A DNA stretch of 64,000 nucleotides from Escherichia phage FEC14. Positions 28,079 through 56,690 of the stretch are shown piece after piece. Made by a program: the position numbers and the translations under genes. The stretch is taken from sequence record MG383452. The stretch is one strand, 5' to 3'. Positions within the stretch are counted from its first letter, which is position 1; every line of letters begins with the position of its first letter. The notes below the pieces were generated by a model. That model was not told the DNA's origin. It was given only the letters and a program-made list of their open reading frames with translations, and made no database searches.

Positions 28079-28167
28079 GATTTGTTTCCTGTATTGTGAA
28101 CCATCTAGTATTTAGTGTTAATGGGTTCATGAGGTACTATATAGAATAATATAACTGGAGAAAGAAA

Positions 28168-28773
28168 ATGAAAACTTTTCAAGACTTTTTGACCGAAGCC
28201 GCGCCGCCGATGTCTGTTCATATCAAGGCAGACAAGATCGGCAAATCCACCGAAGACAATATCGGTACTTTCTTGCGAGTTAGTGTTAGTGGCGACAAAG
28301 CCACCTTTGAAACCCCTGATGGTCGTAAGATAATCCTGACGGGTGCCAGAGACATCATTTCCGCATCTGGTCTGAAAGATGGACAGTTTGCCAGTGCCCA
28401 GATGATTGACAAGGTTGATACTGACACCGCTGTCAAGTACAACAAATCAGGCAAATATATTGACTTGTTGGATGTCAAATCAGGTATGGGCAATTCCTTT
28501 ATCTCCATTGACGGCAACAAGCAATGGAAAGAAATGACTGAAGGTGGTTGGTATGCGTATAAAGGCGGTCGCCCCGGCTTGGCTCGTTATAAGATCGCCA
28601 TGGTTATGGGACCTCATGCGGGTATGCCATCTCCTGGGGAAGATATTGAATACGAGTTACCGAATGGCGGCAAAGAACGCGGAACCGTCATGAAACTGAA
28701 TGGTGCATCCAAGCTGATGGACGTCAAAAACGAAAAAGGTAAGAAAGTACAAGTCAGTATGTATGTGAAATAA
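28168..28773 (+). CDS. putative capsid internal protein with T4-type capsid-targeting sequence
   Basis: N-terminus MKTFQDFLTE-A closely matches T4 IP leader MKTYQEFIAE-A; own terminator. Confidence 0.45.
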   Translation: MKTFQDFLTEAAPPMSVHIKADKIGKSTEDNIGTFLRVSVSGDKATFETPDGRKIILTGARDIISASGLKDGQFASAQMIDKVDTDTAVKYNKSGKYIDLLDVKSGMGNSFISIDGNKQWKEMTEGGWYAYKGGRPGLARYKIAMVMGPHAGMPSPGEDIEYELPNGGKERGTVMKLNGASKLMDVKNEKGKKVQVSMYVK

Positions 28774-28775
28774 CA

Positions 28776-28802
28776 AAACCCCGCGAAAGCGGGGTTTCTT
28801 TT
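28776..28802. terminator. bidirectional rho-independent terminator
   Basis: CCCCGC-GAAA-GCGGGG hairpin followed by TTTCTTTT. Confidence 0.55.
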
Positions 28803-29040
28803 ATGGCTTGACCAGAGTCATCTTGACGGTTTCACCCGTGTCGGTGTCTGTCAGGGTCATGACGTCTTGTGCGTTCACAGACTTCACTTTCCCCTGCCGC
28901 TTGTCGCCGTTGCGGTTGTAGTAGTCGATCAGTTCGCCTTTGGTTGGGCGGCCAACATCGGTGATGTCATACTGACCGCGCTTCCCCAGCGCCCGATGGT
29001 CTGTTGCTTCCTTCAGCAGGAAGTCCTGGAACCCTTTCAT
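28801..29040 (-). CDS. small protein with capsid-targeting-like N-terminus (79 aa)
   Basis: MKGFQDFLLKE-A leader; GGGGGA RBS. Confidence 0.4.
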   Translation of the reverse strand: MKGFQDFLLKEATDHRALGKRGQYDITDVGRPTKGELIDYYNRNGDKRQGKVKSVNAQDVMTLTDTDTGETVKMTLVKP

Positions 29041-29048
29041 ACATCCCC

Positions 29049-29618
29049 CTAGACAGGCTTAACGCCGAGGAACTTGGCGATATCAGCAGCCAGGTTTTTA
29101 CCCTTGCTGATGTCCTGCTCTTTGCCGTTGCAGGTGACGATCACATATGGGTCGTCTTCGCCGCCGAAGTTCACGGTGATCGCCTTGCCGATGCCTGGGA
29201 TACCAGAGTATTCGAACTCAGTGCGACCACTTTTGCGGGACTTGCCAACACCCAGTGCTTTACCGATCATCTTGTCCATGTTCGCCAGTTCCTGAGCATA
29301 GGCTTCGGTCACCTGGCCTTTGTCAGCAGACTTGCCAAAGAAGAATTCGAAACCGTCATGGACAGCAACGACTTCCTGACCTTGGGAGATACCGTGAGTC
29401 TGGTCTGGGGTTAGTTTGACTTTTGCTGTGTTACCGTCAGTGAGTTCCAGGTTGTAGACATCCGCCTGATTGTCAGGGGTGATCTGGGTGATGACAGCTC
29501 CAGAGCACCACAATGTTCCATCAGCTTGGCTTTTGATGGATATACTCTTGCCCTGGATGCCAGCATGGGTCTGAGGCTGAGCGGCTTGTTCTTTGAAATA
29601 TTGAAGGAACGGTTTCAT
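29049..29618 (-). CDS. putative capsid internal protein (189 aa), late gene
   Basis: MKPFLQYFKE-Q leader; GAGGAG RBS; exact late promoter 24 nt upstream. Confidence 0.5.
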   Translation of the reverse strand: MKPFLQYFKEQAAQPQTHAGIQGKSISIKSQADGTLWCSGAVITQITPDNQADVYNLELTDGNTAKVKLTPDQTHGISQGQEVVAVHDGFEFFFGKSADKGQVTEAYAQELANMDKMIGKALGVGKSRKSGRTEFEYSGIPGIGKAITVNFGGEDDPYVIVTCNGKEQDISKGKNLAADIAKFLGVKPV

Positions 29619-29642
29619 CTTAATCTCCTCGGGGATTTCAGT

Positions 29643-29650
29643 TATTTATA
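29643..29650 (-). promoter_or_regulatory. T4-type late promoter TATAAATA (minus strand)
   Basis: plus-strand TATTTATA = minus TATAAATA, 24 nt upstream of ATG 29618. Confidence 0.5.
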
Positions 29651-29651
29651 A

Positions 29652-29665
29652 GCCCCCGAAGGGGC
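29652..29665 (-). terminator. stem-loop downstream of the 638-aa gene (possible terminator/RNA stability element)
   Basis: GCCCC-CGAA-GGGGC hairpin immediately after stop codon; weak T-run. Confidence 0.35.
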
Positions 29666-29674
29666 TTTCGATGA

Positions 29675-31591
29675 TCAGATCTTAATCTGCATATTGCCGC
29701 CCAGGGACTGCTCGTACTCGCTGTACGCGCTTTCCCCGTTGCTTGCAGCCCATTCGTCAGACTGCTGAGCGCGAGACAGAGTCATCAGGTTTGGTTCAGT
29801 CGGGTTGTATCCCTTGGACTTAGCATCCTGGTACAGAGTCTGCAGGTACTGGTTAGCGCGATCGATTTGAGCCTTGAACTCGCGATATGCACCTTCGGTT
29901 GTGTTACGACGGAAGGTGATATCCCAGTCCACGTTCAGAGTCTGACCATCACGGCTTGCATAGATCTGCCAATCCAGGTCGCGACCTTTTGGAGCGTTGT
30001 CGCGGATGGAGCCTGCATATGTTGCCAGGTCTACACCAGTCTTTTTAGCGGTCGCTAAAACCAAGGGTGCCAAGCGATCAATAGCGGTTTGCACTATTGC
30101 GGTCAGTTTGGACGGTTTGGTGATGTCGATGTCTCGGATGACGATAGGCTGGCCGATGGTCTTCCCATTCGGTCCATATTCGGTAATTGCTTTGACAGTC
30201 AGCACAATAGGATCACTTCCTTTGGTGATACCACGGTTGATCGTCGCTGTTACAGCCCCTTTCGCGCCAAAAGAGACACTACCGGAGGCCATCGTAGAAG
30301 AAGACACACCACGAAGTTCATTTACTTTGTAGAATGCGTTCACCAGAGCACGCCAGCGGTCTGTTGTGAGTTCGGCTGCCGTGGTTTGAGCAGGAGCCAC
30401 AGCCCCAACGCCAAATTCAACATAAGCCACAATCTTGCCACCCGACTTCAGTTCCCAACCCATACCCTGACGGTCAGAAGCCGCCATGAGTTTACGATCC
30501 ACTTCCCCACGACCAACATATTCTTTGTTGAATACGGTCACCTGAGCGATAGATTGGGAGCGGGCAATCTTCGCCATTGCGCCATCTTTGACCATGATGG
30601 CCAGATCATTGGAACTCAGAGTCACGTCGTTGGCACCGACTACCTTCACAACAGAACTGAAGATGCCGTTGGATTTCGCCATGACGGAAATGTTCCAGTC
30701 AGGGTTGGCATCACTGGTCGGGAAGTTAATTTCACGCCAGTCTTTGACGCGTTGGTTGAAATTATTGAGCAGATCCGAAGGAGGAACAGGAACACCAAAT
30801 TCACGACAAATATCTTCTACGGTCGGTTCTACCACCTGCTTTCTACCGTTCTGACCAACGAGGACATCGGCCTCACTCAGGCTTGGGGTAATGTCCAAGT
30901 CAAATGTGCCACGCTGATAATAGTTGATGCGAGGAGGCTGACCGATCTTACCACGCCATGACCAGGTTGCGGGATTGTTGGTAGTAGCGCCAACATTAGT
31001 GTCTTGAGTATCGTTCTGAACCGGAACGTCGCCGACCTTGTCTGGATCATCCCATGTGACACCTTTCATTTTCGGACCATCGAATACCTGAGCAGGATCC
31101 TTACCTTTACGCACAACCCATACGAATGCACGATCAGGGATAGGGGTATACGTCAGGTCCATGACATTGAGCTTCTGCTTCAGGCCGGACTGACGGATGA
31201 TCTTCGGCAGGAGGGTAACACCACGTTCCAATGCTTTCTTGGAGAAGTTAATTGCAAAGCCGTCAATGGTTTTCCCCAAAGGCGTCGCCATGAATTGCTT
31301 TGTTGCTTCGATCATGGATGCGATGACACGCATTGGGTTTTTGAAACGACCGATTGCGTCTGGATAGGTCGAACCACGTTTCTGGCCTATGAAGACCTGA
31401 CGAACGTTCTTGCCCAGCCCCTGCGGGGTATAAAATTGGATGCGGAATTCTTTTTCGTCTTCATCAACAAATGTGAAGAAAATGTCACCAGCGTTCTTCT
31501 TACCGAATGTCAATTCATACGGGGATGAGTTAAACGCTTCGTCTAATTGTTTAGACTCTTCAAGAAAGTTCAAGAAAGATGGGATGGCCAT
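29675..31591 (-). CDS. large protein (638 aa) with capsid-targeting-like N-terminus; candidate packaged/injected protein
   Basis: MAIPSFLNFLEE-S leader resembling L-x-E cleavage context; AGGAGA RBS. Confidence 0.5.
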   Translation of the reverse strand: MAIPSFLNFLEESKQLDEAFNSSPYELTFGKKNAGDIFFTFVDEDEKEFRIQFYTPQGLGKNVRQVFIGQKRGSTYPDAIGRFKNPMRVIASMIEATKQFMATPLGKTIDGFAINFSKKALERGVTLLPKIIRQSGLKQKLNVMDLTYTPIPDRAFVWVVRKGKDPAQVFDGPKMKGVTWDDPDKVGDVPVQNDTQDTNVGATTNNPATWSWRGKIGQPPRINYYQRGTFDLDITPSLSEADVLVGQNGRKQVVEPTVEDICREFGVPVPPSDLLNNFNQRVKDWREINFPTSDANPDWNISVMAKSNGIFSSVVKVVGANDVTLSSNDLAIMVKDGAMAKIARSQSIAQVTVFNKEYVGRGEVDRKLMAASDRQGMGWELKSGGKIVAYVEFGVGAVAPAQTTAAELTTDRWRALVNAFYKVNELRGVSSSTMASGSVSFGAKGAVTATINRGITKGSDPIVLTVKAITEYGPNGKTIGQPIVIRDIDITKPSKLTAIVQTAIDRLAPLVLATAKKTGVDLATYAGSIRDNAPKGRDLDWQIYASRDGQTLNVDWDITFRRNTTEGAYREFKAQIDRANQYLQTLYQDAKSKGYNPTEPNLMTLSRAQQSDEWAASNGESAYSEYEQSLGGNMQIKI

Positions 31592-33686: not shown

Positions 33687-33996
33687 ATGTTTGTCTCAAA
33701 TATTCAGTAAAAGATTTACCCAACTTACGGAATAGTTTAATACGACCGATCACTTTGACATAAACATCTCCATGACATGGGCGCGGCTTACACCAGCATC
33801 CCAAGGTCTTTCCATCTAATTCAAGGAGTTCATCTTCGGTGATATCCCCTTCAATCAGGCGCACATACAAGTCGTCTTCAAACAACTCAATACAGTTTCC
33901 CCGCCCGTGGTCTTTGACCTCGAACGGGTTTCCCCATTTGCCAGGACGGCCAATGTAGACGTCGTGTGGTTCCTTCTTGAAGTGGACGACTTTCAT
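33667..33996 (-). CDS. conserved hypothetical protein (DUF4326-like pattern)
   Basis: 109 aa; HDVYIGRPGKWGNPF ... LGCWCKPRPCHGDV pattern. Confidence 0.4.
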   Translation of the reverse strand: MKVVHFKKEPHDVYIGRPGKWGNPFEVKDHGRGNCIELFEDDLYVRLIEGDITEDELLELDGKTLGCWCKPRPCHGDVYVKVIGRIKLFRKLGKSFTEYLRQTYVRRER

Positions 33997-34148
33997 ATGA
34001 TTGTATCAGCTAACCAGTATGCTGCCCAAACGCTTACACCACCGTACATAAAACCATAGATAATTTCTCCAGAGTTTATGTGGCGTAAACACATATTCAC
34101 AGAACAAATTGTGATTAAAATCAAAAATACCAAACAAATAGTAGCCAT
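33993..34148 (-). CDS. small hydrophobic protein (about 51 aa), translationally coupled
   Basis: unlisted ORF MATICLVFLILITICSV...; ATGA overlaps at both ends with flanking genes. Confidence 0.3.
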   Translation of the reverse strand: MATICLVFLILITICSVNMCLRHINSGEIIYGFMYGGVSVWAAYWLADTII

Positions 34149-34462
34149 CATGACATATCCTCATAATTAGATAGATTGATCAAGAAGGGCAGGTTCCGGT
34201 CATATATGAGGTCAATGGCCTTGCGGCTACCCACAGCCTCACATGTCCAATAACTGTAATTCCCTGCGATCTTCAATGCTAGTCGGACGACATGACGCCT
34301 CATATTGTACTGAGCCAACTGATATCGGGCGCGTGTCTTCTTGCGCCAGCATTGATTCTCCGCTTTGTACTTGTAGAGGATCATCAGGCGAACGGCTTTG
34401 TACAGGCGCTTTTCAGCGCCCTTGGATTTCTTTGATACACGAATCAGGCTACCCATGATCAA
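34148..34462 (-). CDS. hypothetical basic protein (104 aa)
   Basis: ORF track; Lys/Arg-rich. Confidence 0.4.
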   Translation of the reverse strand: MIMGSLIRVSKKSKGAEKRLYKAVRLMILYKYKAENQCWRKKTRARYQLAQYNMRRHVVRLALKIAGNYSYWTCEAVGSRKAIDLIYDRNLPFLINLSNYEDMS

Positions 34463-36792
34463 TCCTTCTTAATCACTTCGGTCATGCCATTACGCAGACC
34501 ATAACGAATGTTATGTTGGAAATATTCTTGGAACTCCTGTTCACGCTGACTGATGACAAACAGATTGTTCCCACCAAATTTATGTTTCAGCATCTCAACC
34601 GATTCTTGTACGCCACGCTCGCTCATGTTCTCAAGGATTTCATCTAACACAAACAGGTTACATTGCACCGACGCCTTGAGGTTGGCCACGTCCCGTAGGG
34701 CTAATGTCACAGCCAGATTGAGTCGGCTGCGTTGTCCTGTAGACAGGGAGAATATGCTTTGCCCTTTACGACCTGCAGCGCTCATGGTGATTTCAAATGT
34801 ATCATCAACAGCAATATCCAAGAACATATTGAGTGCTTCAAGATACTCGTTTATTTTACTATTGAGGAAAGGCAAATACAGGCTGATAATTCGAGCCTTG
34901 GTCTGATCATCTTTTAGGAAGAACAGAAGATGGTTCAGGTCTTGCAATTTCTCATCCAACTCTACGCGCCGCGCATTCAGATCTTCCATTAATGCCGTGA
35001 TGCGAGCGATCTCTCCTTCCAGGGCTTCAGTTGGTGTCGGCTTAACCGCCAATTTACGCTCTAAATCGGCAATGGATGCCTCTAGAGGGGCACGGCGTGA
35101 TTTCAGGCTGGTGAGTTTATCAGCCGTGTCGTTGATACTCTTAGAGAGCTGCTCACGCGCTTGACGGATTGACGTCGTGATATCTTCGTAACGGGTGTCT
35201 ACGGCCTTGAGGACGTCGTTAATTTTGGACTGTTGTTCCCGCTGTAAAGATGTTTTCTCAACAGCAGCGACATCATAGAATCCTTGGATGTCGCGTTTTA
35301 ATGTAGCGATCGCCGATTCCGCTTCTCGGATTTCATTGCGCAAAGCATCCAGTTCTTTGTCAATAACCGAAATCTGAGAAGATAATTCTGAATCTCTGAC
35401 ATTGTAATTCTCAATCAGGGAATTCACTTCTTCTAGGGCTGTATCAACCTGAAGAATCTTGTCAGTCAGTTCACTGATTTGTGGATAATATTGACTTTCA
35501 ATGCGTGATTTGGTATCGTCCGACACTAATTGCGTACACGTAGGGCAAGTGCCCATATCGTGGAAACGTTTGATGGCAGATTCATGTCCTTCCATTTCTG
35601 TTACGAATTTGATACGGAAGTTCTCACCCTGCTGACGCCGCGCTAATGCTTTGTTCAGTTCATCCAGGTTAGCATTCCGTTGGCTGACCAGATCATTTTT
35701 ACGTTCCGCGACTACCGCCATTCTCTCCCGAATTTCTTGTAATGAACGTTCGCCATCAGACACCTCGATACGTTCATAGTCTTCAGCCTTGGTATCAGCA
35801 TCATCCTGAACTGCTTGGATTTTGGCCGCATACTCTTCATTGATGGAATCGATATCCACCTTCATTTCAGCGTTCAGGCGATTACGGACTTCTGATAATT
35901 CAGTTTCTAATTTAGAATCTTGGGCACGGAATTCCGTCAGTTCGTCTTGAGAAGCACCAATATCTGAATTCAAACTATTCAGACGTTCCTTCTCTTGGAC
36001 AAGGATATCAGCAGATTGTTGCTGGATCATCGCATTGGAATTATTGATCTGTTCCAACTGCGCTTGCTGGCCTTTTAAATTTACATCATGAAAGGCGTAA
36101 TCATTGGTGACCGTCGTGAGTTCATTCGTTACTGTCTTGATAGATGCTTTTACATCTTCATTCATCAGACTGAAGAACCCCAAATCCCAGATTGTCTCTA
36201 CCATAGCGCGACGGTCGGCAGTGTACATTTCCGTGAATGGGATGAACTTCTCTTTGCCCAGAACCAGGGAGTTCTCAAACATCTTCTGGTCCACGCCAAT
36301 CAGGTTCACAATATATTTGTTCATGTCGGCTTTGGCCGCATCATTCACGACCTTCTTCCACTCACCGTCTACCATCTGATAGACTTCTACGAAATCAGGT
36401 TTGATACCACGACGGACTTTCCATTCACTTCCTCGAGTGGAGAACTCAACTTCACCCACGCATTCCTTTTTGTTTTGGGAATTGACTAATCCGGCTTTCT
36501 TTTCTTTCTTGCTGTATGTGTCATTATACAGAACGAAGAACAGCAGCCAGACAAGCATGGTGGATTTACCAGCGCCATTGTCATCGGATGTAACCAAGGT
36601 TGCCGAATTGCGTTGGTAATCAATTTCCATGAATTCATTACCGATAGAACGGAAGTTTTTAGCGCGACCGCGATGGAAAGTCAGTTTGTGGGTAATTTCC
36701 CCACGAATTTCAAATGGTACTTCAACAGAAACAGGAGTGTCCGCTTCTTTCAACAGCGAACCAAATTTTGATAATAGGTCTACATTGTTCAT
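34459..36792 (-). CDS. 46: Rad50/SbcC-like recombination ATPase, T4 gp46-like
   Basis: 777 aa; N-terminal Walker A NGAGKSTM, long coiled coil with CPTC zinc hook, C-terminal signature/Walker B (LFVLDEILENM). Confidence 0.85.
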   Translation of the reverse strand: MNNVDLLSKFGSLLKEADTPVSVEVPFEIRGEITHKLTFHRGRAKNFRSIGNEFMEIDYQRNSATLVTSDDNGAGKSTMLVWLLFFVLYNDTYSKKEKKAGLVNSQNKKECVGEVEFSTRGSEWKVRRGIKPDFVEVYQMVDGEWKKVVNDAAKADMNKYIVNLIGVDQKMFENSLVLGKEKFIPFTEMYTADRRAMVETIWDLGFFSLMNEDVKASIKTVTNELTTVTNDYAFHDVNLKGQQAQLEQINNSNAMIQQQSADILVQEKERLNSLNSDIGASQDELTEFRAQDSKLETELSEVRNRLNAEMKVDIDSINEEYAAKIQAVQDDADTKAEDYERIEVSDGERSLQEIRERMAVVAERKNDLVSQRNANLDELNKALARRQQGENFRIKFVTEMEGHESAIKRFHDMGTCPTCTQLVSDDTKSRIESQYYPQISELTDKILQVDTALEEVNSLIENYNVRDSELSSQISVIDKELDALRNEIREAESAIATLKRDIQGFYDVAAVEKTSLQREQQSKINDVLKAVDTRYEDITTSIRQAREQLSKSINDTADKLTSLKSRRAPLEASIADLERKLAVKPTPTEALEGEIARITALMEDLNARRVELDEKLQDLNHLLFFLKDDQTKARIISLYLPFLNSKINEYLEALNMFLDIAVDDTFEITMSAAGRKGQSIFSLSTGQRSRLNLAVTLALRDVANLKASVQCNLFVLDEILENMSERGVQESVEMLKHKFGGNNLFVISQREQEFQEYFQHNIRYGLRNGMTEVIKKD

Positions 36793-36794
36793 TA

Positions 36795-37910
36795 TTATGC
36801 ATCCAATGTGTTCAAACGTTGTTGGGCAGCATTATAAAATTGTTCTGCAAGTTTGCAAACATTTTCAGGGCGCTGGATATTGTTGGCTGCGCGGATATCA
36901 TTTTTCAAGACTTCTACAGCATCAGTAGCCACCATCTCTTCAGTGACTTCTACCTTCTCGGAAGCAACAGTAATCGTCCGATCGATGAAGTTGTAATCGA
37001 TGCATTTACAGCGCTTCAATGCGTCACAGAACTTTTCATAATGCTTGGCATTGTCACGGTTCTGTACAATCACCTTAACGATTTGCCCTTCAATACCCAA
37101 AACATTGTTTAACCAATCGGGGTCGATCCAATTACCTTCAGTATCAGAAGACATTTGTGTGTAGTCGTATTCCACGAACCGGAACAACGTTTGTTGTTCG
37201 TTGTTGGGGATAAACAATTCCCCGCCATTCATGTCGTCTACATAGAATCCTCGGTTCGTCCCGTCTTTGTGGTCTTCCCAGGTAAGATGATAAGGAGTCC
37301 CAATATACTGAATGTTACCTTCCATCGAACGGGTATGGAAATGTCCGGTATCCACGCGCTCGAATTTCGAAAGGAGCGCCAAGTCGATCTGACCTTTATC
37401 ACATACAGAGGACTGGTACATTTTGAACCCTGCCAACTCCAGATGCGCAAAACAGTACTTGGCGTCTGTATCTTGTATCGCTTTAATGGACGCATCATAG
37501 TTCTCTTTGTTAATCCACGGCAGTAGGAGGGTCTTGACACCTTCAATCATTACTTCAGTTGGTTCGCTGTAATAATGATAAACATCCGGTGCCAATTCAT
37601 TAAGATAAGAAGGCCAGTTAATGCGATTGGACTCTTCTAACGTGATATCATGGTTTCCAACGATGCCATTCCATTTGATACCCGCCTTTCTCAGGGCTGG
37701 CGTTAATTCATCTTTCAACCAATCTTTATCGCGACCATACATGAATTTGCGAACATCAAACGTATCACCAAATTGCCACACTTCTTTAATATCGGCGTCA
37801 ACCAATTCTGGAATAAAATAATTGATGAGATAATTCTTTATGAATTCTCGAACGTAACGGGAACCATTACGGCTCCCGATATGTAAATCGCCAATTTTAG
37901 CAATCGCCAT
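36795..37910 (-). CDS. 47: Mre11/SbcD-like nuclease, T4 gp47-like
   Basis: 371 aa; calcineurin-like phosphoesterase motifs GDLHIG, GDTFD, GNHD; directly upstream of 46 as in T4. Confidence 0.85.
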   Translation of the reverse strand: MAIAKIGDLHIGSRNGSRYVREFIKNYLINYFIPELVDADIKEVWQFGDTFDVRKFMYGRDKDWLKDELTPALRKAGIKWNGIVGNHDITLEESNRINWPSYLNELAPDVYHYYSEPTEVMIEGVKTLLLPWINKENYDASIKAIQDTDAKYCFAHLELAGFKMYQSSVCDKGQIDLALLSKFERVDTGHFHTRSMEGNIQYIGTPYHLTWEDHKDGTNRGFYVDDMNGGELFIPNNEQQTLFRFVEYDYTQMSSDTEGNWIDPDWLNNVLGIEGQIVKVIVQNRDNAKHYEKFCDALKRCKCIDYNFIDRTITVASEKVEVTEEMVATDAVEVLKNDIRAANNIQRPENVCKLAEQFYNAAQQRLNTLDA

Positions 37911-38703
37911 TATTTTGTTGCTCCCGTTCTAATGCTCGTTTCTTTGCTTCTTCCCAATCTGGTTCCATAGAACATATTTCGTCTTCCAGATTGAATTGAG
38001 TAGAGCCGAAGTCATAGTCTGAATTATCTTCGGCGTCGGCGGTAATGGTATTTTCACTCTTTGTGAGACATTGAAGTATACCGCGAGGAATTTTCTTATT
38101 CTTTTCCTCTTCTTTGATGGCGATTTGCTTTTGGCGTTCCTTTTCGCGCTGTGCTTCTTTCTTAGTTTCAAAATTTCCGATACGCTCACGGAAGTCCATT
38201 GTTATACCAGTGCTGTCTACGAATGTCTGTTGCTGGAAGTCTGGGTCATCTGATAATGCAGCGAAACCACCTGCTTCTTCAAATGAACGCAACTTGATAT
38301 AATTGTGTTCTTCTTCACTGGTGAGTTTCTTGGCGAATGAACGATCGGCGCACATCGTTACCCAAGAGAAGAAATTGATTTTTCCTTTCTTGCCGATATG
38401 ACTGACGTCAAATGTATGGAGGTAACGAAGAATGTTAACAACGGCCTCACTGACCATGTCTTCGCGGTATGGATAATCACGATAGTTGTAGCGCATACTC
38501 ATGTTCTTAATAATCATCTGAACATTCATGGCCACATAATTGGGGATTCTTGGTAGGGGTGTTCCTTCGGCCAAAGCCTTTTTGCGAGCCGGAATCCAAT
38601 CTCTCAATATTCCAACAACACGGTCATTATCTTCGTCTGTGAAATATTTGGTGACGTTATCACCCCTGTCTACAAAATTCATACCCATCGTGATAATCCT
38701 CAA
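37897..38703 (-). CDS. 55: putative late-transcription sigma factor, gp55-like
   Basis: 268 aa; region ...NVQMIIKNMSMRYNYRDYPYREDMVSEAVVNILRYLHTFD... resembles T4 gp55 core; 55-47-46 synteny; long acidic C-terminal extension. Confidence 0.45.
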   Translation of the reverse strand: MRIITMGMNFVDRGDNVTKYFTDEDNDRVVGILRDWIPARKKALAEGTPLPRIPNYVAMNVQMIIKNMSMRYNYRDYPYREDMVSEAVVNILRYLHTFDVSHIGKKGKINFFSWVTMCADRSFAKKLTSEEEHNYIKLRSFEEAGGFAALSDDPDFQQQTFVDSTGITMDFRERIGNFETKKEAQREKERQKQIAIKEEEKNKKIPRGILQCLTKSENTITADAEDNSDYDFGSTQFNLEDEICSMEPDWEEAKKRALEREQQNNGDC

Positions 38704-39242
38704 ATACCAATGAATTCATTGAAAGAACCAACGACTTTCTTGACCGAGAAACGGTTATTTTCAAGAACCATTGAACTATCTTCTTTGGCTCTAACGCTCC
38801 ACTGATCCGCAATTTCGTTGCCCATCGTTCCTGCATGACCTTTCACCCATTTTAATTCAAGTTCACAAATTGAACAAACTTTGTCATAATAATCGAACAA
38901 CTCGAGCAGAAGTTCTGTGTTCTTAGGCGGCATTCCTTCATATTCCCATTTACGACGCCACTCCAAAACGCTATTGATAACATATTGGCTGTCGGATATG
39001 ATGCGGGCTGGGGGAATGCAGCGTTCACCGCAATTAGAGAATTTCCATAGGATCTTCATTGCGTTTATAACCCCGAGTAACTCAGCTATATTGTTCGTTG
39101 ACGGCGGGGGTAAATACCCATAAAACACTTTCCATTGCTCTCCAGTGATTGGACTGATGGCAAATGCCCAACCAGCGGCTCGTGTCTTCTGAGGGGATGA
39201 TGCCCCGTCAGTGTATATTTCAATCATGTATAAGTATCCCAA
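38700..39242 (-). CDS. rnhA: ribonuclease HI (cellular type)
   Basis: 180 aa; IYTDGAS, NNIAEL, DSQYV, KGHAG...GNEIAD catalytic motifs in order. Confidence 0.7.
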   Translation of the reverse strand: MGYLYMIEIYTDGASSPQKTRAAGWAFAISPITGEQWKVFYGYLPPPSTNNIAELLGVINAMKILWKFSNCGERCIPPARIISDSQYVINSVLEWRRKWEYEGMPPKNTELLLELFDYYDKVCSICELELKWVKGHAGTMGNEIADQWSVRAKEDSSMVLENNRFSVKKVVGSFNEFIGI

Positions 39243-39269
39243 ACTGGTTTTATCGATGAGGAACGAATC

Positions 39270-40037
39270 ATGTCAGAACGCGCATATCGTTTCAGTCTGA
39301 CCGCCCCAGAAATTGAGCGTTTGCTCTTGTCTATAAATGATTCCATACAAAAGCTGGACATCATTTATGACTACACGGCGGGTGGGACTGAAGGTCAAGT
39401 CGCAGCTGCGTCAGCTGTCAAAAACATGTGGCTAAAACTTAATGAGATGGTCACAGGTGAAGGTCTTAAAGACGCAATCAATGCAGCTAACGACAGCAAC
39501 GTATTCACCGATTATTATAAGTCTATTTTAGATCGCGAAACTTGGAAATTTATTGGTTCTCCGGCAGATTTATTAGCAAGGGACGATATAGACACTTCCA
39601 ATTTTGAAGGCGGTGAAGTAATCCTCCTACAAAAGAACGCTTCGGGCAACCCAGAATTCCAATACTGGAAAAGAACTCCTGTGGCAGGAGGTGATCCAAT
39701 ATTTGGTTGGGAATCTGTTTATGAAGGAAACTCCAACGACTCTTCTATTGATATTCCGGTTGTTGGGACCAGCATACTGAAGACAATCCCAAAAGCATTG
39801 TTTCATATGGTCGAATTCAGAGTACACGCTCGAGAGTCTACCCTCGGTCATTGGCAGGACACTGATGGCAAAATCGGTTATCGTGGTGAAGATCTGATTT
39901 ATAGCCTGTATAATCATGTTCAAACCAAACCGATCGCAAATATATCTTTCAGCCAAGATGTGGACAATATGATTATCACGATAACGACACTTGAACCAAA
40001 TATCAAGTGCCATTTATCGTTTATTGCGGGTTATTAA
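39270..40037 (+). CDS. hypothetical protein (255 aa), lone plus-strand gene
   Basis: ORF track; GAGGAA RBS; convergent 4-nt overlap with helicase gene. Confidence 0.45.
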   Translation: MSERAYRFSLTAPEIERLLLSINDSIQKLDIIYDYTAGGTEGQVAAASAVKNMWLKLNEMVTGEGLKDAINAANDSNVFTDYYKSILDRETWKFIGSPADLLARDDIDTSNFEGGEVILLQKNASGNPEFQYWKRTPVAGGDPIFGWESVYEGNSNDSSIDIPVVGTSILKTIPKALFHMVEFRVHARESTLGHWQDTDGKIGYRGEDLIYSLYNHVQTKPIANISFSQDVDNMIITITTLEPNIKCHLSFIAGY

Positions 40038-41755
40038 ACCTCAAACACTGCATCGGTGAACCAGGTTGGGAAGAATTCTGGGTTGCGCATCATAAGAGAT
40101 TCAAAGGATGAATCAATGATGTATGTCGCAGCCCAGTCATCAACACCCCTGACCGAACGCCCACACATTTGAACAATGCGCAGTACTGCATTGCGGAAAT
40201 ATGCCGACGGATCCACTGAATTGATATGTGCTATCAGTGGATCGCCCAGATAATCATAAGGGACTTTGATCAGTATTTGGAAACGGCTGTAATCCCCTTT
40301 GAAATCATAACCTTCTTCCATAGCCGGACTGGCAATGACGCATGGGGACTTTGTTCTAAAAGCATTTTCCATAATATCCATCAACGCCTTTCGGGTGCGC
40401 GGAACATGGATAAAATTCTGATATTTACTGAATTTTTGTATTGCCAAGGCGCGATCATAACTCACTGTATGGATAATGCCGGACTGACCTGGGTGGAACG
40501 CGATTATTTCATCAATATATTCCGTCAACCTTTTCATTTCATAGTCGCCCATATTGTTAGTCATCTTCACTATGGGCATATAGTTGACTTTTCTGTTTTC
40601 AATTGGGATAGGGTTGCCGATCTGAATGGAATGATAATCCCCCTGTCGAATACCCAATGAACGAGCATAAGAATCTATGCCGCAGATCGTTGCTGACATA
40701 TGAACGTGATAATCGGCTTTTCGGAATAACCCGAATTCGCTTACATCAGAAGGCATAACAGGTTTAAACCGGATAAAATCTTCCCCCTTTTCTTGCACAA
40801 TAAATGTACTTGCTTGGGTTTGTGACATAATACCGCAATAATCACTCAAGTTATGCAAGACATCTATAATGTCTGCGAGTTTCATCACTTGGCTTTCACT
40901 CAAGCGATCATCTTCGACCAATTCTTCAAGAACTTCCAACAAATTTTCTACTTTGAGATGGAGGTCTTCAAACATTGAATGTAGTTCACCAGACAAAGAA
41001 TATAACTTGCCCAGGACATAGTCCTTGGTGCGTTCTACGATATCACCAATGGTAGAGACGATCTCCTTGCCCTCAGGGATAGAACGCAGCCCCTCCACGG
41101 CCTTTGTATTGTATTCCATGATCGTGTGCTCTAGGAGCGTAGAGGGCATTTTATGGCACTCGTCAAGGATCAGCATATCGGAACGGTTTTCGGGCTTCAT
41201 GCAGATGGTTGTACACATTTCGATCATCATGGCAGCATTAGTACAACGCAATGATGAAATATCCGTCCACAAATTACGCGCCTGTACATAAGGACAGCGG
41301 CGTTTGCTACAATGCCCGTCACGGCATGCTATACGGCATTGGACAGCATTGTAATACACATCTGGATGTACGTGGCAACGATAGTTCTTCTTGCCTTTTA
41401 GGATGTCTATCGCCACCGCCTTTTCAGCAGCATACTGATCTTGCAGACCTTTGGTCGGGGTGCTGATAGAAGTGCGAAATTGCCCATAAGGATCAGCCTG
41501 TAAAACTAGATGGCGAATCACTTTATGAATGGTAGTGCCAATCAAAGATTTACCGACACCTGTCGGAGCTTCAATGATGACATGTTTAACCTTTTTGTTG
41601 ATAAGCGCATCTATGGCTTCGACGATGCATTCCATCTGGCCTGGGTTCGCTTTGTCATATGGGAATTCATCTTTGGTAAGGCGTTGTATTTCTTCCACAG
41701 GAACCTTACGGCCTATGGCGTCAATCGCCTTTCGGTGTTGATTAAATGCTGTCAC
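40034..41755 (-). CDS. DinG/XPD-family (Rad3-like) Fe-S DNA helicase
   Basis: 573 aa; Walker A EAPTGVGKS, DECH box, four-Cys cluster (C..C..C..C) between motifs I and II. Confidence 0.7.
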   Translation of the reverse strand: MTAFNQHRKAIDAIGRKVPVEEIQRLTKDEFPYDKANPGQMECIVEAIDALINKKVKHVIIEAPTGVGKSLIGTTIHKVIRHLVLQADPYGQFRTSISTPTKGLQDQYAAEKAVAIDILKGKKNYRCHVHPDVYYNAVQCRIACRDGHCSKRRCPYVQARNLWTDISSLRCTNAAMMIEMCTTICMKPENRSDMLILDECHKMPSTLLEHTIMEYNTKAVEGLRSIPEGKEIVSTIGDIVERTKDYVLGKLYSLSGELHSMFEDLHLKVENLLEVLEELVEDDRLSESQVMKLADIIDVLHNLSDYCGIMSQTQASTFIVQEKGEDFIRFKPVMPSDVSEFGLFRKADYHVHMSATICGIDSYARSLGIRQGDYHSIQIGNPIPIENRKVNYMPIVKMTNNMGDYEMKRLTEYIDEIIAFHPGQSGIIHTVSYDRALAIQKFSKYQNFIHVPRTRKALMDIMENAFRTKSPCVIASPAMEEGYDFKGDYSRFQILIKVPYDYLGDPLIAHINSVDPSAYFRNAVLRIVQMCGRSVRGVDDWAATYIIDSSFESLMMRNPEFFPTWFTDAVFEV

Positions 41756-41803
41756 GTTGTTCCTCCTTTGGATTCTGTTATAGTTTACCCGAATCCCAAC
41801 AAC

Positions 41804-41830
41804 GAAAAAGCCGAGGCATTAACCTCGGCT
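41804..41830 (-). terminator. rho-independent terminator downstream of HU-like gene
   Basis: AGCCGAGG-CATTAA-CCTCGGCT hairpin, T-run on minus strand. Confidence 0.5.
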
Positions 41831-41890
41831 TCTCCTTTTAGCCTTGCGCCGCTGCACTGCAGACATGCGCTGGGCCGACGCCTGGTGTGA

Positions 41891-42169
41891 TTACTGGCCG
41901 TTGGCAGCAGCTTTCAGACCTTCACCGACTTTGAATTTAACTACATTTTTCGCTTCGATCTGGATCTGTTGTCCGTTCAGCGGGTTGCGGCCAGTGCGCG
42001 CTTCCTGATGTTTAACTTCGAACGCGCCGAAGCCTACGAATTGGACAGATTGGCCAGCCGCGACTGCAGTTTTCACGCCATTGATAAAAGATGCAACGAT
42101 TTTCTCAGCTTCGCCTTTGGTCATACCCTGGGTTTGAGCGATGTGAGCGATAAAATCAGTACGGTTCAT
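41891..42169 (-). CDS. HU/IHF-family DNA-binding protein
   Basis: 92 aa from MNRTDFIAHIA; GFGAFEVKHQEARTGRNPLNGQQIQIEAKNVVKFKVG is a canonical HU arm. Confidence 0.7.
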   Translation of the reverse strand: MNRTDFIAHIAQTQGMTKGEAEKIVASFINGVKTAVAAGQSVQFVGFGAFEVKHQEARTGRNPLNGQQIQIEAKNVVKFKVGEGLKAAANGQ

Positions 42170-47289: not shown

Positions 47290-47335
47290 GATATAGTTCC
47301 TTCATTTCAAATGGGCGGGGCAAAGATACCCCGCC
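47284..47335 (-). repeat. 5-prime cassette copy A: GGCGGGG stem-loop plus CATTTGAAATGAAGGAA RBS context
   Basis: near-identical to 47843-47894; hairpin GGCGGGG-CAAAGATA-CCCCGCC. Confidence 0.5.
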
Positions 47336-47341
47336 GTGGGT

Positions 47342-47848
47342 TTATAGGGTAACAAGTGATACGGTAAAAACCATCGTCCCATCTGTTGCCATTTTTCTTG
47401 AAACTGGGAAGACGCGAGGCTGACAGAATATCCATTCTTTCTCCATGGACGCCAAGTCCAGCATATCCATTTCTGATTCATCGCCTTTGTTCACAAATTT
47501 TTCTAGAGAACCAAAGACATTAAGCCCCTCTGGGAGTCCGTTTCGATGTTTATAACAAATGCGGGCAACAGCTTTGGTTCCATACGATTTAGAAAATTGT
47601 TTGGCCACATGCTTCAGTTCGCTGAAACTAAGACAAGAATCCCATGTCTGAAACATGTCTCCTCGTTCAAACATCATCTCCAAACGCGCAACGTCCTCTT
47701 TAGGCAACCCGCGATAAAGTGTGGTCATCTGCGGTTCGCGTAATTCTTGCACCAGACCACGGATGGCAGGGGAAACAGTGCCAGGGCGCATGATGTGGGA
47801 CTTATCATGGACGAGGTAAAATAAATCTTGAATTTGTTGATCGGTCAT
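47342..47848 (-). CDS. hypothetical protein (168 aa)
   Basis: ORF track; starts MTDQ like the downstream 92-aa gene. Confidence 0.45.
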   Translation of the reverse strand: MTDQQIQDLFYLVHDKSHIMRPGTVSPAIRGLVQELREPQMTTLYRGLPKEDVARLEMMFERGDMFQTWDSCLSFSELKHVAKQFSKSYGTKAVARICYKHRNGLPEGLNVFGSLEKFVNKGDESEMDMLDLASMEKEWIFCQPRVFPVSRKMATDGTMVFTVSLVTL

Positions 47849-47894
47849 GATGTATTTCCTTCATTTCAAATAGGCGGGGTAATCATACCCCACC
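47843..47894 (-). repeat. 5-prime cassette copy B: stem-loop plus TATTTGAAATGAAGGAA RBS context
   Basis: about 36-nt near-identity with copy A including first codons ATGAC(A/C)GATCAA. Confidence 0.5.
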
Positions 47895-47907
47895 CTAAGT
47901 TATAGAA

Positions 47908-48147
47908 TTAACTGATGTGCTTCAGAAGAGCGAAGAGGATCGCGGCCTTGGCTTTCACCTTTCCGACGACGCCTGTTTCGACGTCGACTTCTTCGGCAAC
48001 CCAATCTTTTCCCTTCTTGCTGATGATAACATCGCGGCGCTGGGCATATACTTCTTTGGTCGCATACACACGACGGAACCCTTTAGCGCGGAGCAAGCCC
48101 CAATTACGATCAATCTCCACTGAAGTTTCTACCATTTTGTTCTTCAT
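47908..48147 (-). CDS. hypothetical protein (79 aa)
   Basis: ORF track. Confidence 0.4.
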   Translation of the reverse strand: MKNKMVETSVEIDRNWGLLRAKGFRRVYATKEVYAQRRDVIISKKGKDWVAEEVDVETGVVGKVKAKAAILFALLKHIS

Positions 48148-48231
48148 GATATAATCTTACCTTTCAACCTGGTGAACCCATCGTTCGCCAGTTATTGAAT
48201 AATACGCATTTGCCTTATAGAAGTAAACCCC

Positions 48232-48264
48232 TAAAAGTAAAAATCCCCAACGTTTGTTGGGGAT
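48232..48264 (-). terminator. rho-independent terminator downstream of ACP-like gene
   Basis: ATCCCCAAC-GTTT-GTTGGGGAT hairpin followed by TTTTACTTTT on minus strand. Confidence 0.5.
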
Positions 48265-48270
48265 CTTCAG

Positions 48271-48603
48271 TTACTTGCGCAGGGCAACCACGTATTCGGC
48301 AAGTTCACCCATGGTCGGGTCGTCGCCTTTACCGCCCAGCCAGCCATCAGAGATCTCGACATTGAACTCTTCTTCTAGTTCCATGACGATTTCGATGGCA
48401 TCAAGATCGTCGCCGCCGAGGTCTTTCTTGGTGCGGAGGCCAGCCAGTTTATCCAGGGCGTCATTCATAATCACTTCCGCGTCGACGATGCCTTTGATGC
48501 TGCTCTTGTCTTCGTCACTGACTTCCAGGTTCAGATTGTCAGTGGCGTACTGAGCCAGGTGACGCATTACTTCAACATAAGTTGGTTTGTTTGACATAAG
48601 CAT
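48271..48603 (-). CDS. acyl carrier protein-like protein lacking the phosphopantetheine serine
   Basis: 110 aa; DLGGDDLDAIEIVMELEEEF aligns with E. coli ACP [20 protein letters not shown], Ser replaced by Asp; C-terminal extension. Confidence 0.55.
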   Translation of the reverse strand: MLMSNKPTYVEVMRHLAQYATDNLNLEVSDEDKSSIKGIVDAEVIMNDALDKLAGLRTKKDLGGDDLDAIEIVMELEEEFNVEISDGWLGGKGDDPTMGELAEYVVALRK

Positions 48604-55433: not shown

Positions 55434-56690
55434 TTATTCAGGTTTCTTCAAACGATCTAATAAATTGACCGATCCGCGATTGAGGACAATTTCATCGCAT
55501 CGATTTTTGTATCTCCCGCCTCCATCATAACCGACCTTGCCGCGTGGCTTTTCCCCTCTCTCGATAGCCTCAACACAGCGGGTGTACTTGCTCAATTCAC
55601 AGAACATGTTCTCCAGCTGCATGACGTTCATGCACTGATCTTCCGGCGCTTCGGCTGACCAGAACTGCTCTTGGACATAACCATACTGAGCAAACAATTG
55701 ATACTGATGATCACGAACCCAGAATATGCATTCTTCATGAGTCATGCCGTCCTTATCCAGGAACATCAGGTCAATACCCGCACGGCAACCTGGACCAGCA
55801 ATAGTGAAATGATTCTCACTGAATGGATATTCATCGATGTATGTAAAATCAACCCAAATCTGGTATGCCAAGAATGGTCCAAGCCCCTCAATGTCGTCAT
55901 ACATCGCCTGGTAAACAGAGTCGGGACGGCTAAATTCCCTGAGGCGATCAAAGTAATGAGGGTGTTTGTTGACGAATGCCTTCAAAGAGCGAATGACTCG
56001 CATCGGCATGTATGGTTCCCAGCCTTCTATTTTGTATTCACCAGGATTATCTTCGGCCAGCTTCTTGGCAACCTTGTAATCCATTTCATCTATAACACCA
56101 CCCACCCGATGGACTTTTACCTTCATGCCGCCAAAGCGTTGCTCCTTATGGTTGACAACCAGTTCAGGGAAAGCTAGGCATTGTTTCAGACCGCCTGTAT
56201 TAAACGCATTGGTGAAAACTTTGCCACCTTTAGATTCGAATTCCTGAAGAACATCTCGACACCATTCAAGATTTATGTTTCCGAATTCTTCGATCGTCCA
56301 TGGACCACCCAAAGCCTGTATAGGTTCCCACATGTTGTACATGCGGAACAATACACAGTTAAACATTTTGTCAGATAGCGTGAGATCCTGATCGAGGATG
56401 ATATTATTGATCAAATTTCGAGACTGCCTATCGTGCTCTCTCCGGACGTTACAGAACTTGACCTGCCGTAGTATGGGATTATCCGTCCAAGGAGCAGGAA
56501 GACGCTGGACGTCCTTTCTCACGTGGATCTTATAACGCTCGCTCATCCATTCGTATGCGAGTTGTTTATGGAATGGGCTTAACATGGGATGTGCAGATTT
56601 AATTTTAACTTCCCGAACACCGCAATAAGGAATGTCACACGGTTTATCTTTCATGGTATCCTCTCTAGAATACAAAAAAACAGAGGCCAT
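55434..56690 (-). CDS. hypothetical protein (406-418 aa); candidate DNA-modification enzyme by context
   Basis: ORF track; alternative ATG at 56654 with GAGG RBS; first ATG sits in terminator loop. Confidence 0.5.
   Translation of the reverse strand: MASVFLYSREDTMKDKPCDIPYCGVREVKIKSAHPMLSPFHKQLAYEWMSERYKIHVRKDVQRLPAPWTDNPILRQVKFCNVRREHDRQSRNLINNIILDQDLTLSDKMFNCVLFRMYNMWEPIQALGGPWTIEEFGNINLEWCRDVLQEFESKGGKVFTNAFNTGGLKQCLAFPELVVNHKEQRFGGMKVKVHRVGGVIDEMDYKVAKKLAEDNPGEYKIEGWEPYMPMRVIRSLKAFVNKHPHYFDRLREFSRPDSVYQAMYDDIEGLGPFLAYQIWVDFTYIDEYPFSENHFTIAGPGCRAGIDLMFLDKDGMTHEECIFWVRDHQYQLFAQYGYVQEQFWSAEAPEDQCMNVMQLENMFCELSKYTRCVEAIERGEKPRGKVGYDGGGRYKNRCDEIVLNRGSVNLLDRLKKPE

Follow-up and report, generated by a model that had tools for sequence, protein, structure and literature searches.

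Bacteriophage T4 encodes an RNase H that is recorded as a 5'-3' exonuclease processing Okazaki-fragment primers. The first-pass annotation of the DNA studied here had named it a FEN-type enzyme, which holds good, since T4 Rnh matches PF09293 and PF02739. The T4 gene, like the one described below, adjoins a late-transcription gene, lying 5' of dsbA-33. E. coli RNase HI (RnhA; PDB 2RN2/1RNH) is an enzyme of type 1, in which a basic protrusion helps to hold hybrids. Type-1 enzymes are also borne by phages, among them T5 and, under phrog_531 and phrog_3265, ICP1 and jumbo phages, all with the same catalytic residues as the protein considered here. T5 rnhA stands in another context (beside thyA/dhfR/nrdB), lacks a C-terminal extension and shares about 28% identity with our protein. 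In the nucleus-forming jumbo phages, a different phage group, PhiKZ155/Nlp2 combines a PF00075 domain that has RNase H activity in vitro with an extra C-terminal domain, and it is reported to have an essential function independent of nuclease activity (PMC12571901).

Escherichia phage FEC14 belongs to Kuttervirus (Ackermannviridae); it has T4-like genes for replication and late transcription without being a T4 relative in the strict sense. We analysed 64,000 nucleotides of its DNA (sequence record MG383452), referred to below as the window. Over its full length, the aligned parts of the window share 96-99.5% identity with Salmonella phage BSP101. The 5.5 kb from 36500 to 42000 are 99.5% identical to BSP101 and 99.2% to Escherichia phage CBA120; they match 273 phage records, 258 of the 273 over at least 80% of the length. 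The nearest described counterparts of the FEC14 RNase HI are its orthologues in other Ackermannviridae and in Delftia phage phiW-14 (gp225). These occupy the same place 5' of gp55-gp47-gp46 and show no substantive difference, with identities of 95-99% inside Kuttervirus and of 35-86% over the family plus phiW-14.

The gene is already known in annotation. It appears as Vi01_104c ('rnhA-ribonuclease H'), CBA120 orf121 ('putative ribonuclease H') and BSP101 gp136, and many other related records carry the labels 'ribonuclease HI' or 'Rnase H'. Genes for RNase HI are frequent in phages, and a tblastn search with the 180-aa open reading frame product matched 929 phage records. The annotation is present in hundreds of related phage genomes, and a gene of this kind is ordinary for large lytic phages. 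Its naming in Kuttervirus genomes dates from Vi01 and CBA120 (about 2010-2011), and the 2011 CBA120 paper names RNase H orthologues in passing (PMC3184105). Our literature search for biochemical or genetic experiments on the Kuttervirus RNase HI or its close relatives found none.

An intact type-1 RNase H gene

The longest open reading frame at the locus (38700..39242, minus strand) encodes 180 aa from a TTG. That in-frame TTG, at 39242, places five extra residues (MGYLY) before the annotated product, which begins MIEIYTDGAS at the ATG at 39227. Ribosome-binding sites are weak at both candidate starts, and the sole candidate is a GGGA about 10 nt 5' of the ATG. Residues are numbered from the annotated ATG.

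38700..39227, minus strand: rnhA, RNase HI coding sequence, 175 aa plus TGA, with the ATG start of the Vi01 and BSP101 annotations
38805..39209, minus strand: span of the active-site codons, from invariant alignment columns, with codons read directly in the DNA
39209-39207, minus strand: GAC, D7 (E. coli D10; D12 in 180-aa numbering)
39083-39081, minus strand: GAG, E49 (E. coli E48; E54 in 180-aa numbering)
38993-38991, minus strand: GAC, D79 (E. coli D70; D84 in 180-aa numbering)
38837-38835, minus strand: CAT, H131 (E. coli H124; H136 in 180-aa numbering)
38807-38805, minus strand: GAT, D141 (E. coli D134; D146 in 180-aa numbering)
38703..38780, minus strand: C-terminal extension of about 25 aa (ending SSMVLENNRFSVKKVVGSFNEFIGI), from the alignment and the AlphaFold2 model

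Judged by its sequence, this is a genuine and intact type-1 RNase H (RNase HI) gene, far beyond chance. The product matches Pfam RNase_H (PF00075) with E=5.9e-24 and a score of 85.3 bits (gathering cut-off 25.8) over profile positions 4-139 of 141. It matches phrog_531 'Rnase H' with E=2.3e-61 and, in sequence search, the E. coli and Shewanella RNase HI structures with E about 1e-10 to 1e-9. The motifs picked out by the first-pass annotation as those of a cellular-type enzyme (DGAS, NNIAEL, DSQYV and GNEIAD) correspond to D10, E48, D70 and D134 of E. coli, to which alignment adds the histidine, H124. All five residues are invariant in an alignment of 21 sequences, whose members included E. coli RnhA, T5 rnhA and homologues from outside the phage clade described below, two of them labelled bacterial, and again among the 46 database homologues on which the structural model is based. 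The active site proposed at the outset is therefore complete on proper alignment. Comparison with the Vi01 orthologue gave a dN/dS of 0.066, indicating strong purifying selection.

The AlphaFold2 model (mean pLDDT 96.1, pTM 0.92) has the order of elements of the RNase H fold, in which helices flank a mixed sheet of five strands: beta1-3, alphaA, beta4, alphaB/C, alphaD, beta5 and alphaE. Among PDB structures, Foldseek ranks those of E. coli RNase HI first, with target-normalised TM scores of 0.75-0.81 and E about 1e-11 to 1e-10, and the top 50 matches are without exception RNase HI/H1 or reverse transcriptase RNase H domains, at probability 1.00. Fold and D-E-D-D plus His site are thus shared with the E. 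coli enzyme, as is helix C of the handle region (helix 81-97 in the model).

The differences from E. coli RNase HI lie elsewhere. The handle is shortened by 5-6 residues in its loop, and the handle segment is charge-neutral, with 4 K/R against 4 D/E, where E. coli has 7 positive and 2 negative residues. Overall the protein is acidic, with a pI of 5.55 where the E. coli enzyme has 8.43. About eight residues are inserted between helix A and strand 4. The C-terminal extension, absent from the E. coli enzyme and matched by similar extensions in most members of the phage clade described below, is folded in the model as a strand (residues 160-165) and a short helix (169-173). The short neutral handle and the acidity of the protein may mean that substrate affinity or partner dependence differs from that of the E. 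coli enzyme. More speculatively, acidity, neutral protrusion and folded extension together could reflect changed substrate handling or a phage partner.

The end of the C-terminal tail (GSFNEFIGI) loosely resembles the C-terminus of gp32 of the same phage (SIDEFEQFLKQD) and the N-terminus of gp62 (SLFDYL), and we considered whether it is a disordered peptide of the PIP-like, clamp-binding kind. We discarded the idea, as the extension is modelled as a well-packed strand and helix with pLDDT of about 95, and the C-termini of the polymerase, gp33 and gp55 do not share a motif of this kind.

Origin of the gene

That fold and active site are the same as in E. coli RNase HI speaks for a host source, and the first-pass annotation had proposed acquisition from a host. 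Taken as a recent event, this would mean that a copy of the enterobacterial housekeeping rnhA is carried as an accessory gene. The sequence comparisons contradict such an event. Identity to E. coli RnhA is only 27.5%, and the NCBIfam equivalog model for bacterial RnhA (NF001236) gives 67.2 bits, below its cut-off of 160. Beyond the phage clade, identity reaches about 31-38% at most even for the closest relatives, two of which are labelled bacterial RNase HI. In base composition the gene equals its surroundings, at 43.4% GC (GC3 43.2%) against 42-44% GC for the neighbouring genes.

Phylogeny against bacterial RnhA, which had been named as the check on this proposal, leads to the same result. 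We built a neighbour-joining tree from 148 columns with 200 bootstraps, of which 99.5% support a phage/metagenome clade that includes the FEC14 protein. The other members are those of other Ackermannviridae, Vibrio phage BX-1 (Vapseptimavirus) and Delftia phage phiW-14, together with four metagenomic proteins; E. coli RnhA, T5 rnhA and the non-clade homologues lie outside. Features of their own run through the clade, namely the motifs PPS(T/S)N and, following strand 1, AGW, together with the loss of 5-6 residues from the handle loop noted above; in most members the C-terminal extension is present as well. An exhaustive HMMER scan of 1.84 billion representative proteins returned 5425 relatives at E≤0.001 and just 3 at E≤1e-30, so that the Kuttervirus type forms a small branch of its own within a very large family.

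Identity, equivalog score, GC content, tree and the conserved gene order described in the next section led us to reject a recent host capture, an event to which we attach hardly any credence. Low identity, GC, clade and synteny instead indicate that rnhA is an old resident of the phage lineage. In the distant past, the phage gene may nonetheless have come from a cell.

Gene order, junctions and the replisome

The genes around rnhA are as follows.

34459..36792, minus strand: gp46-like (SbcC/Rad50-type) recombination nuclease subunit, from the open reading frame and annotated equivalents, last in the block
36795..37910, minus strand: gp47-like (SbcD/Mre11-type) recombination nuclease subunit (phrog_100, E=1.6e-109), its start overlapping the 3' end of gene 55
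37897..38688, minus strand: gp55-like late sigma factor, 263 aa from the ATG at 38688 (phrog_234, E=1.7e-53), adjoining rnhA on its 3' side
38689..38702, minus strand: rnhA/gene 55 junction, TGAGGATTATCACG, with the rnhA TGA falling within the gp55-like gene's GAGGA ribosome-binding site
39228..39269: gap of 42 bp between the divergent starts of rnhA (minus) and the next open reading frame (plus)
39270-40037, plus strand: open reading frame of 255 aa, divergent from rnhA, function unknown (phrog_3833)
beyond 39270-40037, minus strand: Rad3/DinG-type helicase gene, from sequence matches

The match to phrog_234 bears out the claim that the RNase HI gene stands next to the late sigma factor gene. 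The same order of rnhA, gp55-like gene, gp47 and gp46 recurs in phiW-14, in Vibrio phage BX-1 and on two metagenomic contigs (L011 and L013), whose RNase HI proteins are merely 35-43% identical to that of FEC14. In other words, rnhA lies directly 5' of a gp55-like gene in five divergent lineages. It does so even though the overall gene order of CBA120 and phiW-14 is very different, according to the CBA120 paper (PMC3184105). The contigs of the nearest metagenomic relatives (P0070 and P0071) proved too short to inform on gene context.

At the junction the DNA reads ...ATT TGA GGATTATCACG ATG; the ribosome-binding site, TGAGGA, takes in the rnhA stop codon and precedes the gene 55 ATG by 8 nt. 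The first-pass annotation had the rnhA stop overlapping the 55-like gene. This is true of the longest open reading frame for the 55-like protein, which starts from a TTG at 38703 that has two bases in common with the TGA, and does not apply to the annotated ATG at 38688, which is separated from rnhA by an 11-nt spacer. A stop codon within the next gene's ribosome-binding site makes translational coupling of rnhA and the gp55-like gene possible. We infer that rnhA is probably co-transcribed with the gp55-like, gp47 and gp46 genes.

The 42-bp gap on the other side is too short for two separate promoters, and the rnhA promoter would thus lie inside or beyond the opposite open reading frame. Between 36500 and 42500, a scan for sigma-70 promoters gave 18 candidates (13.2±3.8 in shuffled sequence), showing no enrichment, and a scan for terminators gave 3 against a shuffled expectation of 5.3, showing no excess; because neither exceeded the shuffled expectation, we assign rnhA no promoter. 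We also considered TATAAGTA at 39229-39236 (plus strand), 5' of the divergent open reading frame, as a T4 late promoter of the TATAAATA type, and dropped it. Within the window TATAAATA occurs 3 times against 1.6 expected, again without enrichment. The CBA120 paper describes the ViI-type late promoter as unknown (PMC3184105), and a search of the literature for Kuttervirus transcriptomics found nothing relevant.

The presumed job of T4 RNase H, RNA removal from replication intermediates in a T4-type replisome, is analogous to that considered here, and its fold and chemistry are unrelated (PF02739 and PF09293, against PF00075 alone in FEC14, which matches neither of these FEN families). We looked for a FEN-type enzyme alongside the RNase HI, using the complete genome of BSP101. 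The annotated T4-like set of this phage comprises polymerase, clamp, clamp loader, gp41, gp59, primase (gp61), gp32 and ligase, with UvsW, UvsX, UvsY and gp46/47 for recombination. T4 Rnh found no homologue in tblastn against the genome (best E 0.79). A Pfam scan of 39 BSP101 proteins of at least 150 aa (36 annotated as hypothetical, plus a phosphoesterase, DexA and the DNA end protector) detected no 5_3_exonuc, XPG or T4 RNaseH_C domain, while T4 Rnh, the positive control, was recognised by PF09293 and PF02739. The BSP101 DNA polymerase has only family B exonuclease (3'-5') and polymerase domains. A 249-aa 'exonuclease' beside uvsY, considered as a hidden FEN, was rejected as a PD-(D/E)XK nuclease. 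The screen covered one near-identical genome, by tblastn and by annotated proteins of at least 150 aa, and a very divergent or small nuclease could slip through. With a T4-like replisome set and no detectable FEN, the lineage appears to have an RNase H of type 1 where T4 has one of the flap-endonuclease type.

Predicted function

We consider it probable that the protein is a catalytically competent RNase HI of the Kuttervirus replication and recombination set, degrading RNA on phage DNA. As a metal-dependent endonuclease, it would nick the RNA strand of RNA:DNA hybrids through its D-E-D-D carboxylates and a general-base histidine. It would act in a T4-like replisome that has no detectable T4-type flap-endonuclease 'RNase H'. 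In the infected cell its likeliest substrates would be R-loops and the bulk of the primers that the T4-like primase-helicase synthesises on the lagging strand. The first-pass suggestion of a role in primer or R-loop removal is, on sequence grounds, plausible.

RNase HI needs several consecutive ribonucleotides and leaves the RNA-DNA junction itself uncut, so complete primer removal requires a 5'-3' nuclease. The last ribonucleotide would be taken off by another such enzyme, most simply host DNA polymerase I. Hobbs and Nossal reportedly found in 1996 that T4 depends on one of two enzymes, its own RNase H or host Pol I, either being sufficient; a finishing step by host Pol I is consistent with this precedent.

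RNase HI prefers long hybrids, and T4-type primases make primers of only about 5 nt, which are poor substrates for it; primer removal may therefore not be the main job, and R-loops may be the more important substrate. Carried to its end, this argument gives a reading that overlaps with the one we prefer and in which R-loop control, not Okazaki primer removal, is the main role. The enzyme might process origin R-loops into primers or shut them off, or it might clear the hybrids left by heavy late transcription on replicating DNA. The latter would explain why rnhA is always found beside the late sigma factor gene, and R-loop control agrees with the finding that rnhA directly precedes the gp55-like gene in each of five divergent lineages. 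The phage also encodes a UvsW-type R-loop/branch helicase (PF21241), which implies that R-loop metabolism matters to it. Counter to this, the 55-47-46 block is called T4-like in the phiW-14 and BSP101 annotations, and the adjacency may be historical and not functional. The block is present in T4 too, without rnhA. As an account of the main role, we hold R-loop control to be unlikely.

A further departure from the preferred reading would take the protein out of replication altogether. It could be a counter-defence or host-takeover nuclease that destroys RNA:DNA hybrids of host systems, with candidate targets in retron msDNA, reverse-transcriptase defences and guide-target hybrids, or it could have a structural or sensor role free of catalysis. 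PhiKZ155, reported to be essential without its nuclease activity (PMC12571901), sets the example for the second variant and makes clear that an RNase HI fold is no guarantee of a catalytic role; the acidic surface and the extra C-terminal element of the FEC14 protein would also suit altered partners. Catalytic residues that are invariant throughout the clade, under strong purifying selection, weigh against this and argue for catalysis by the FEC14 enzyme. The gene moreover stands in a replication/recombination block and not among accessory early genes, and a literature search for an anti-defence example of an RNase HI found none. We regard a non-replicative role as very improbable.

Between these poles lies the idea that the enzyme is no generic hybrid nuclease and has become a specialised accessory of the replisome or of late transcription in the Ackermannviridae and phiW-14, phages without the T4 FEN-type enzyme and with hypermodified thymidine. 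If so, the acidic surface, the neutralised handle and the conserved, folded C-terminal element might bind the enzyme to a phage partner, for example gp32, the clamp or gp55, and the fixed site 5' of the late sigma factor gene might mirror a functional link. RNA:DNA structures that are made or cleared could then govern clamp loading and, through it, replication-coupled late transcription. We think this specialisation very improbable.

In the Kuttervirus lineage, a T4-like replisome is accompanied by an RNase H of type 1, and no flap-endonuclease 'RNase H' was detected. There rnhA, itself ancient, is tied to the gp55-gp47-gp46 block, and the form of RNase HI that it encodes, acidic, short-handled and C-terminally extended, has seemingly been characterised by no one. 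Kutterviruses are biocontrol and therapy phages for Salmonella and E. coli O157. Thus, a dependence on host Pol I or on RNase HI could matter in practice.

Genes on either side of rnhA

The type-1 RNase H gene of FEC14, rnhA, is flanked by two genes in the window:
37897-38688, minus strand: gp55-like late sigma factor gene, 263 aa
39270-40037, plus strand: 255-aa ORF (phrog_3833) between the helicase gene and rnhA, in reversed orientation

The PHROG late-sigma profile (181 positions) spans just residues 17-212 of the 268-aa gp55-like ORF. Beyond the match, the protein continues for roughly 55 residues as a strongly charged C-terminal tail (KEAQREKERQKQIAIKEEEKNKK...EDEICSMEPDWEE...).

Some records give the product of the phrog_3833 ORF as a 'structural protein' or a 'baseplate wedge protein'. 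The stop codon of this ORF overlaps that of the convergent helicase gene (window 40034-40037). By place, orientation and size, it resembles an opposite-strand gene (about 250 aa) found at the equivalent site in the Kuttervirus Vi01, the Vibrio phage BX-1 and a metagenomic contig (L015); the Vi01 counterpart by position is annotated 'conserved phage associated protein'.

The neighbourhood of rnhA can be set beside the corresponding region of T4:
NC_000866 3194-4705: T4 rnh-dsbA-33 region

In T4, the FEN-type rnh is followed immediately downstream by dsbA and gene 33, the latter encoding a late-transcription co-activator. In Kuttervirus, gene 55, for the late sigma factor, follows immediately after the type-1 rnhA. 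Thus, each of these two non-homologous 'RNase H' genes adjoins a gene for a late-transcription factor. This placement may be a coincidence, or it may reflect a common replication/late-transcription module.

Deposited records and apparent mosaic segments

One Kuttervirus record, that of CBA120, carries a doubtful rnhA start:
NC_016570 8201-8743: region of CBA120 orf121, the rnhA equivalent, corresponding to window 38700-39242

As deposited, orf121 has only 429 nt (142 aa), and this form would lack the first catalytic Asp. Because the full 180-aa RNase HI ORF is intact in CBA120 and has the same sequence as the window ORF, the annotated start was probably placed too far downstream.

Two other entries contain sequence with 99% identity to this Kuttervirus region: MN871475.1, 'Pseudomonas phage Pa-sanjiao' (158 kb), and OR844944.1, 'Enterococcus phage Efm 3-10' (38.5 kb). 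Kuttervirus sequence is implausible for the hosts named, which suggests that both are mislabelled or contaminated.

Most of the window matches Salmonella phage BSP101 at 96-99.5% identity. Three stretches (approximately 28081-30401, 33996-34382 and 47304-48523) have no BSP101 alignment or align at only 77% identity. In this comparison, the three look like local mosaic or replacement segments among otherwise near-identical Kutterviruses.

Predicted thymidine hypermodification genes

Three profile matches concern DNA modification, one in the window and two in the BSP101 genome, outside the window:
55434-56690, minus strand: 5-hmdU DNA kinase (PF18723, E=1.6e-83)
BSP101 30242-31483 and 40605-41798: genes for an amino acid:DNA transferase and a putative PLP-dependent enzyme

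The transferase matches PF18724 (E=1.6e-59); the PLP-dependent enzyme has a weak PF00291 match (E=1.6e-07) that, at 31.4 bits, falls under the 35-bit cut-off. Taken together, the matches to kinase, transferase and PLP-dependent enzyme point to a predicted thymidine-hypermodification pathway in the phage. The Delftia phage phiW-14, a member of the same RNase HI clade, is likewise a hypermodified-thymidine phage.
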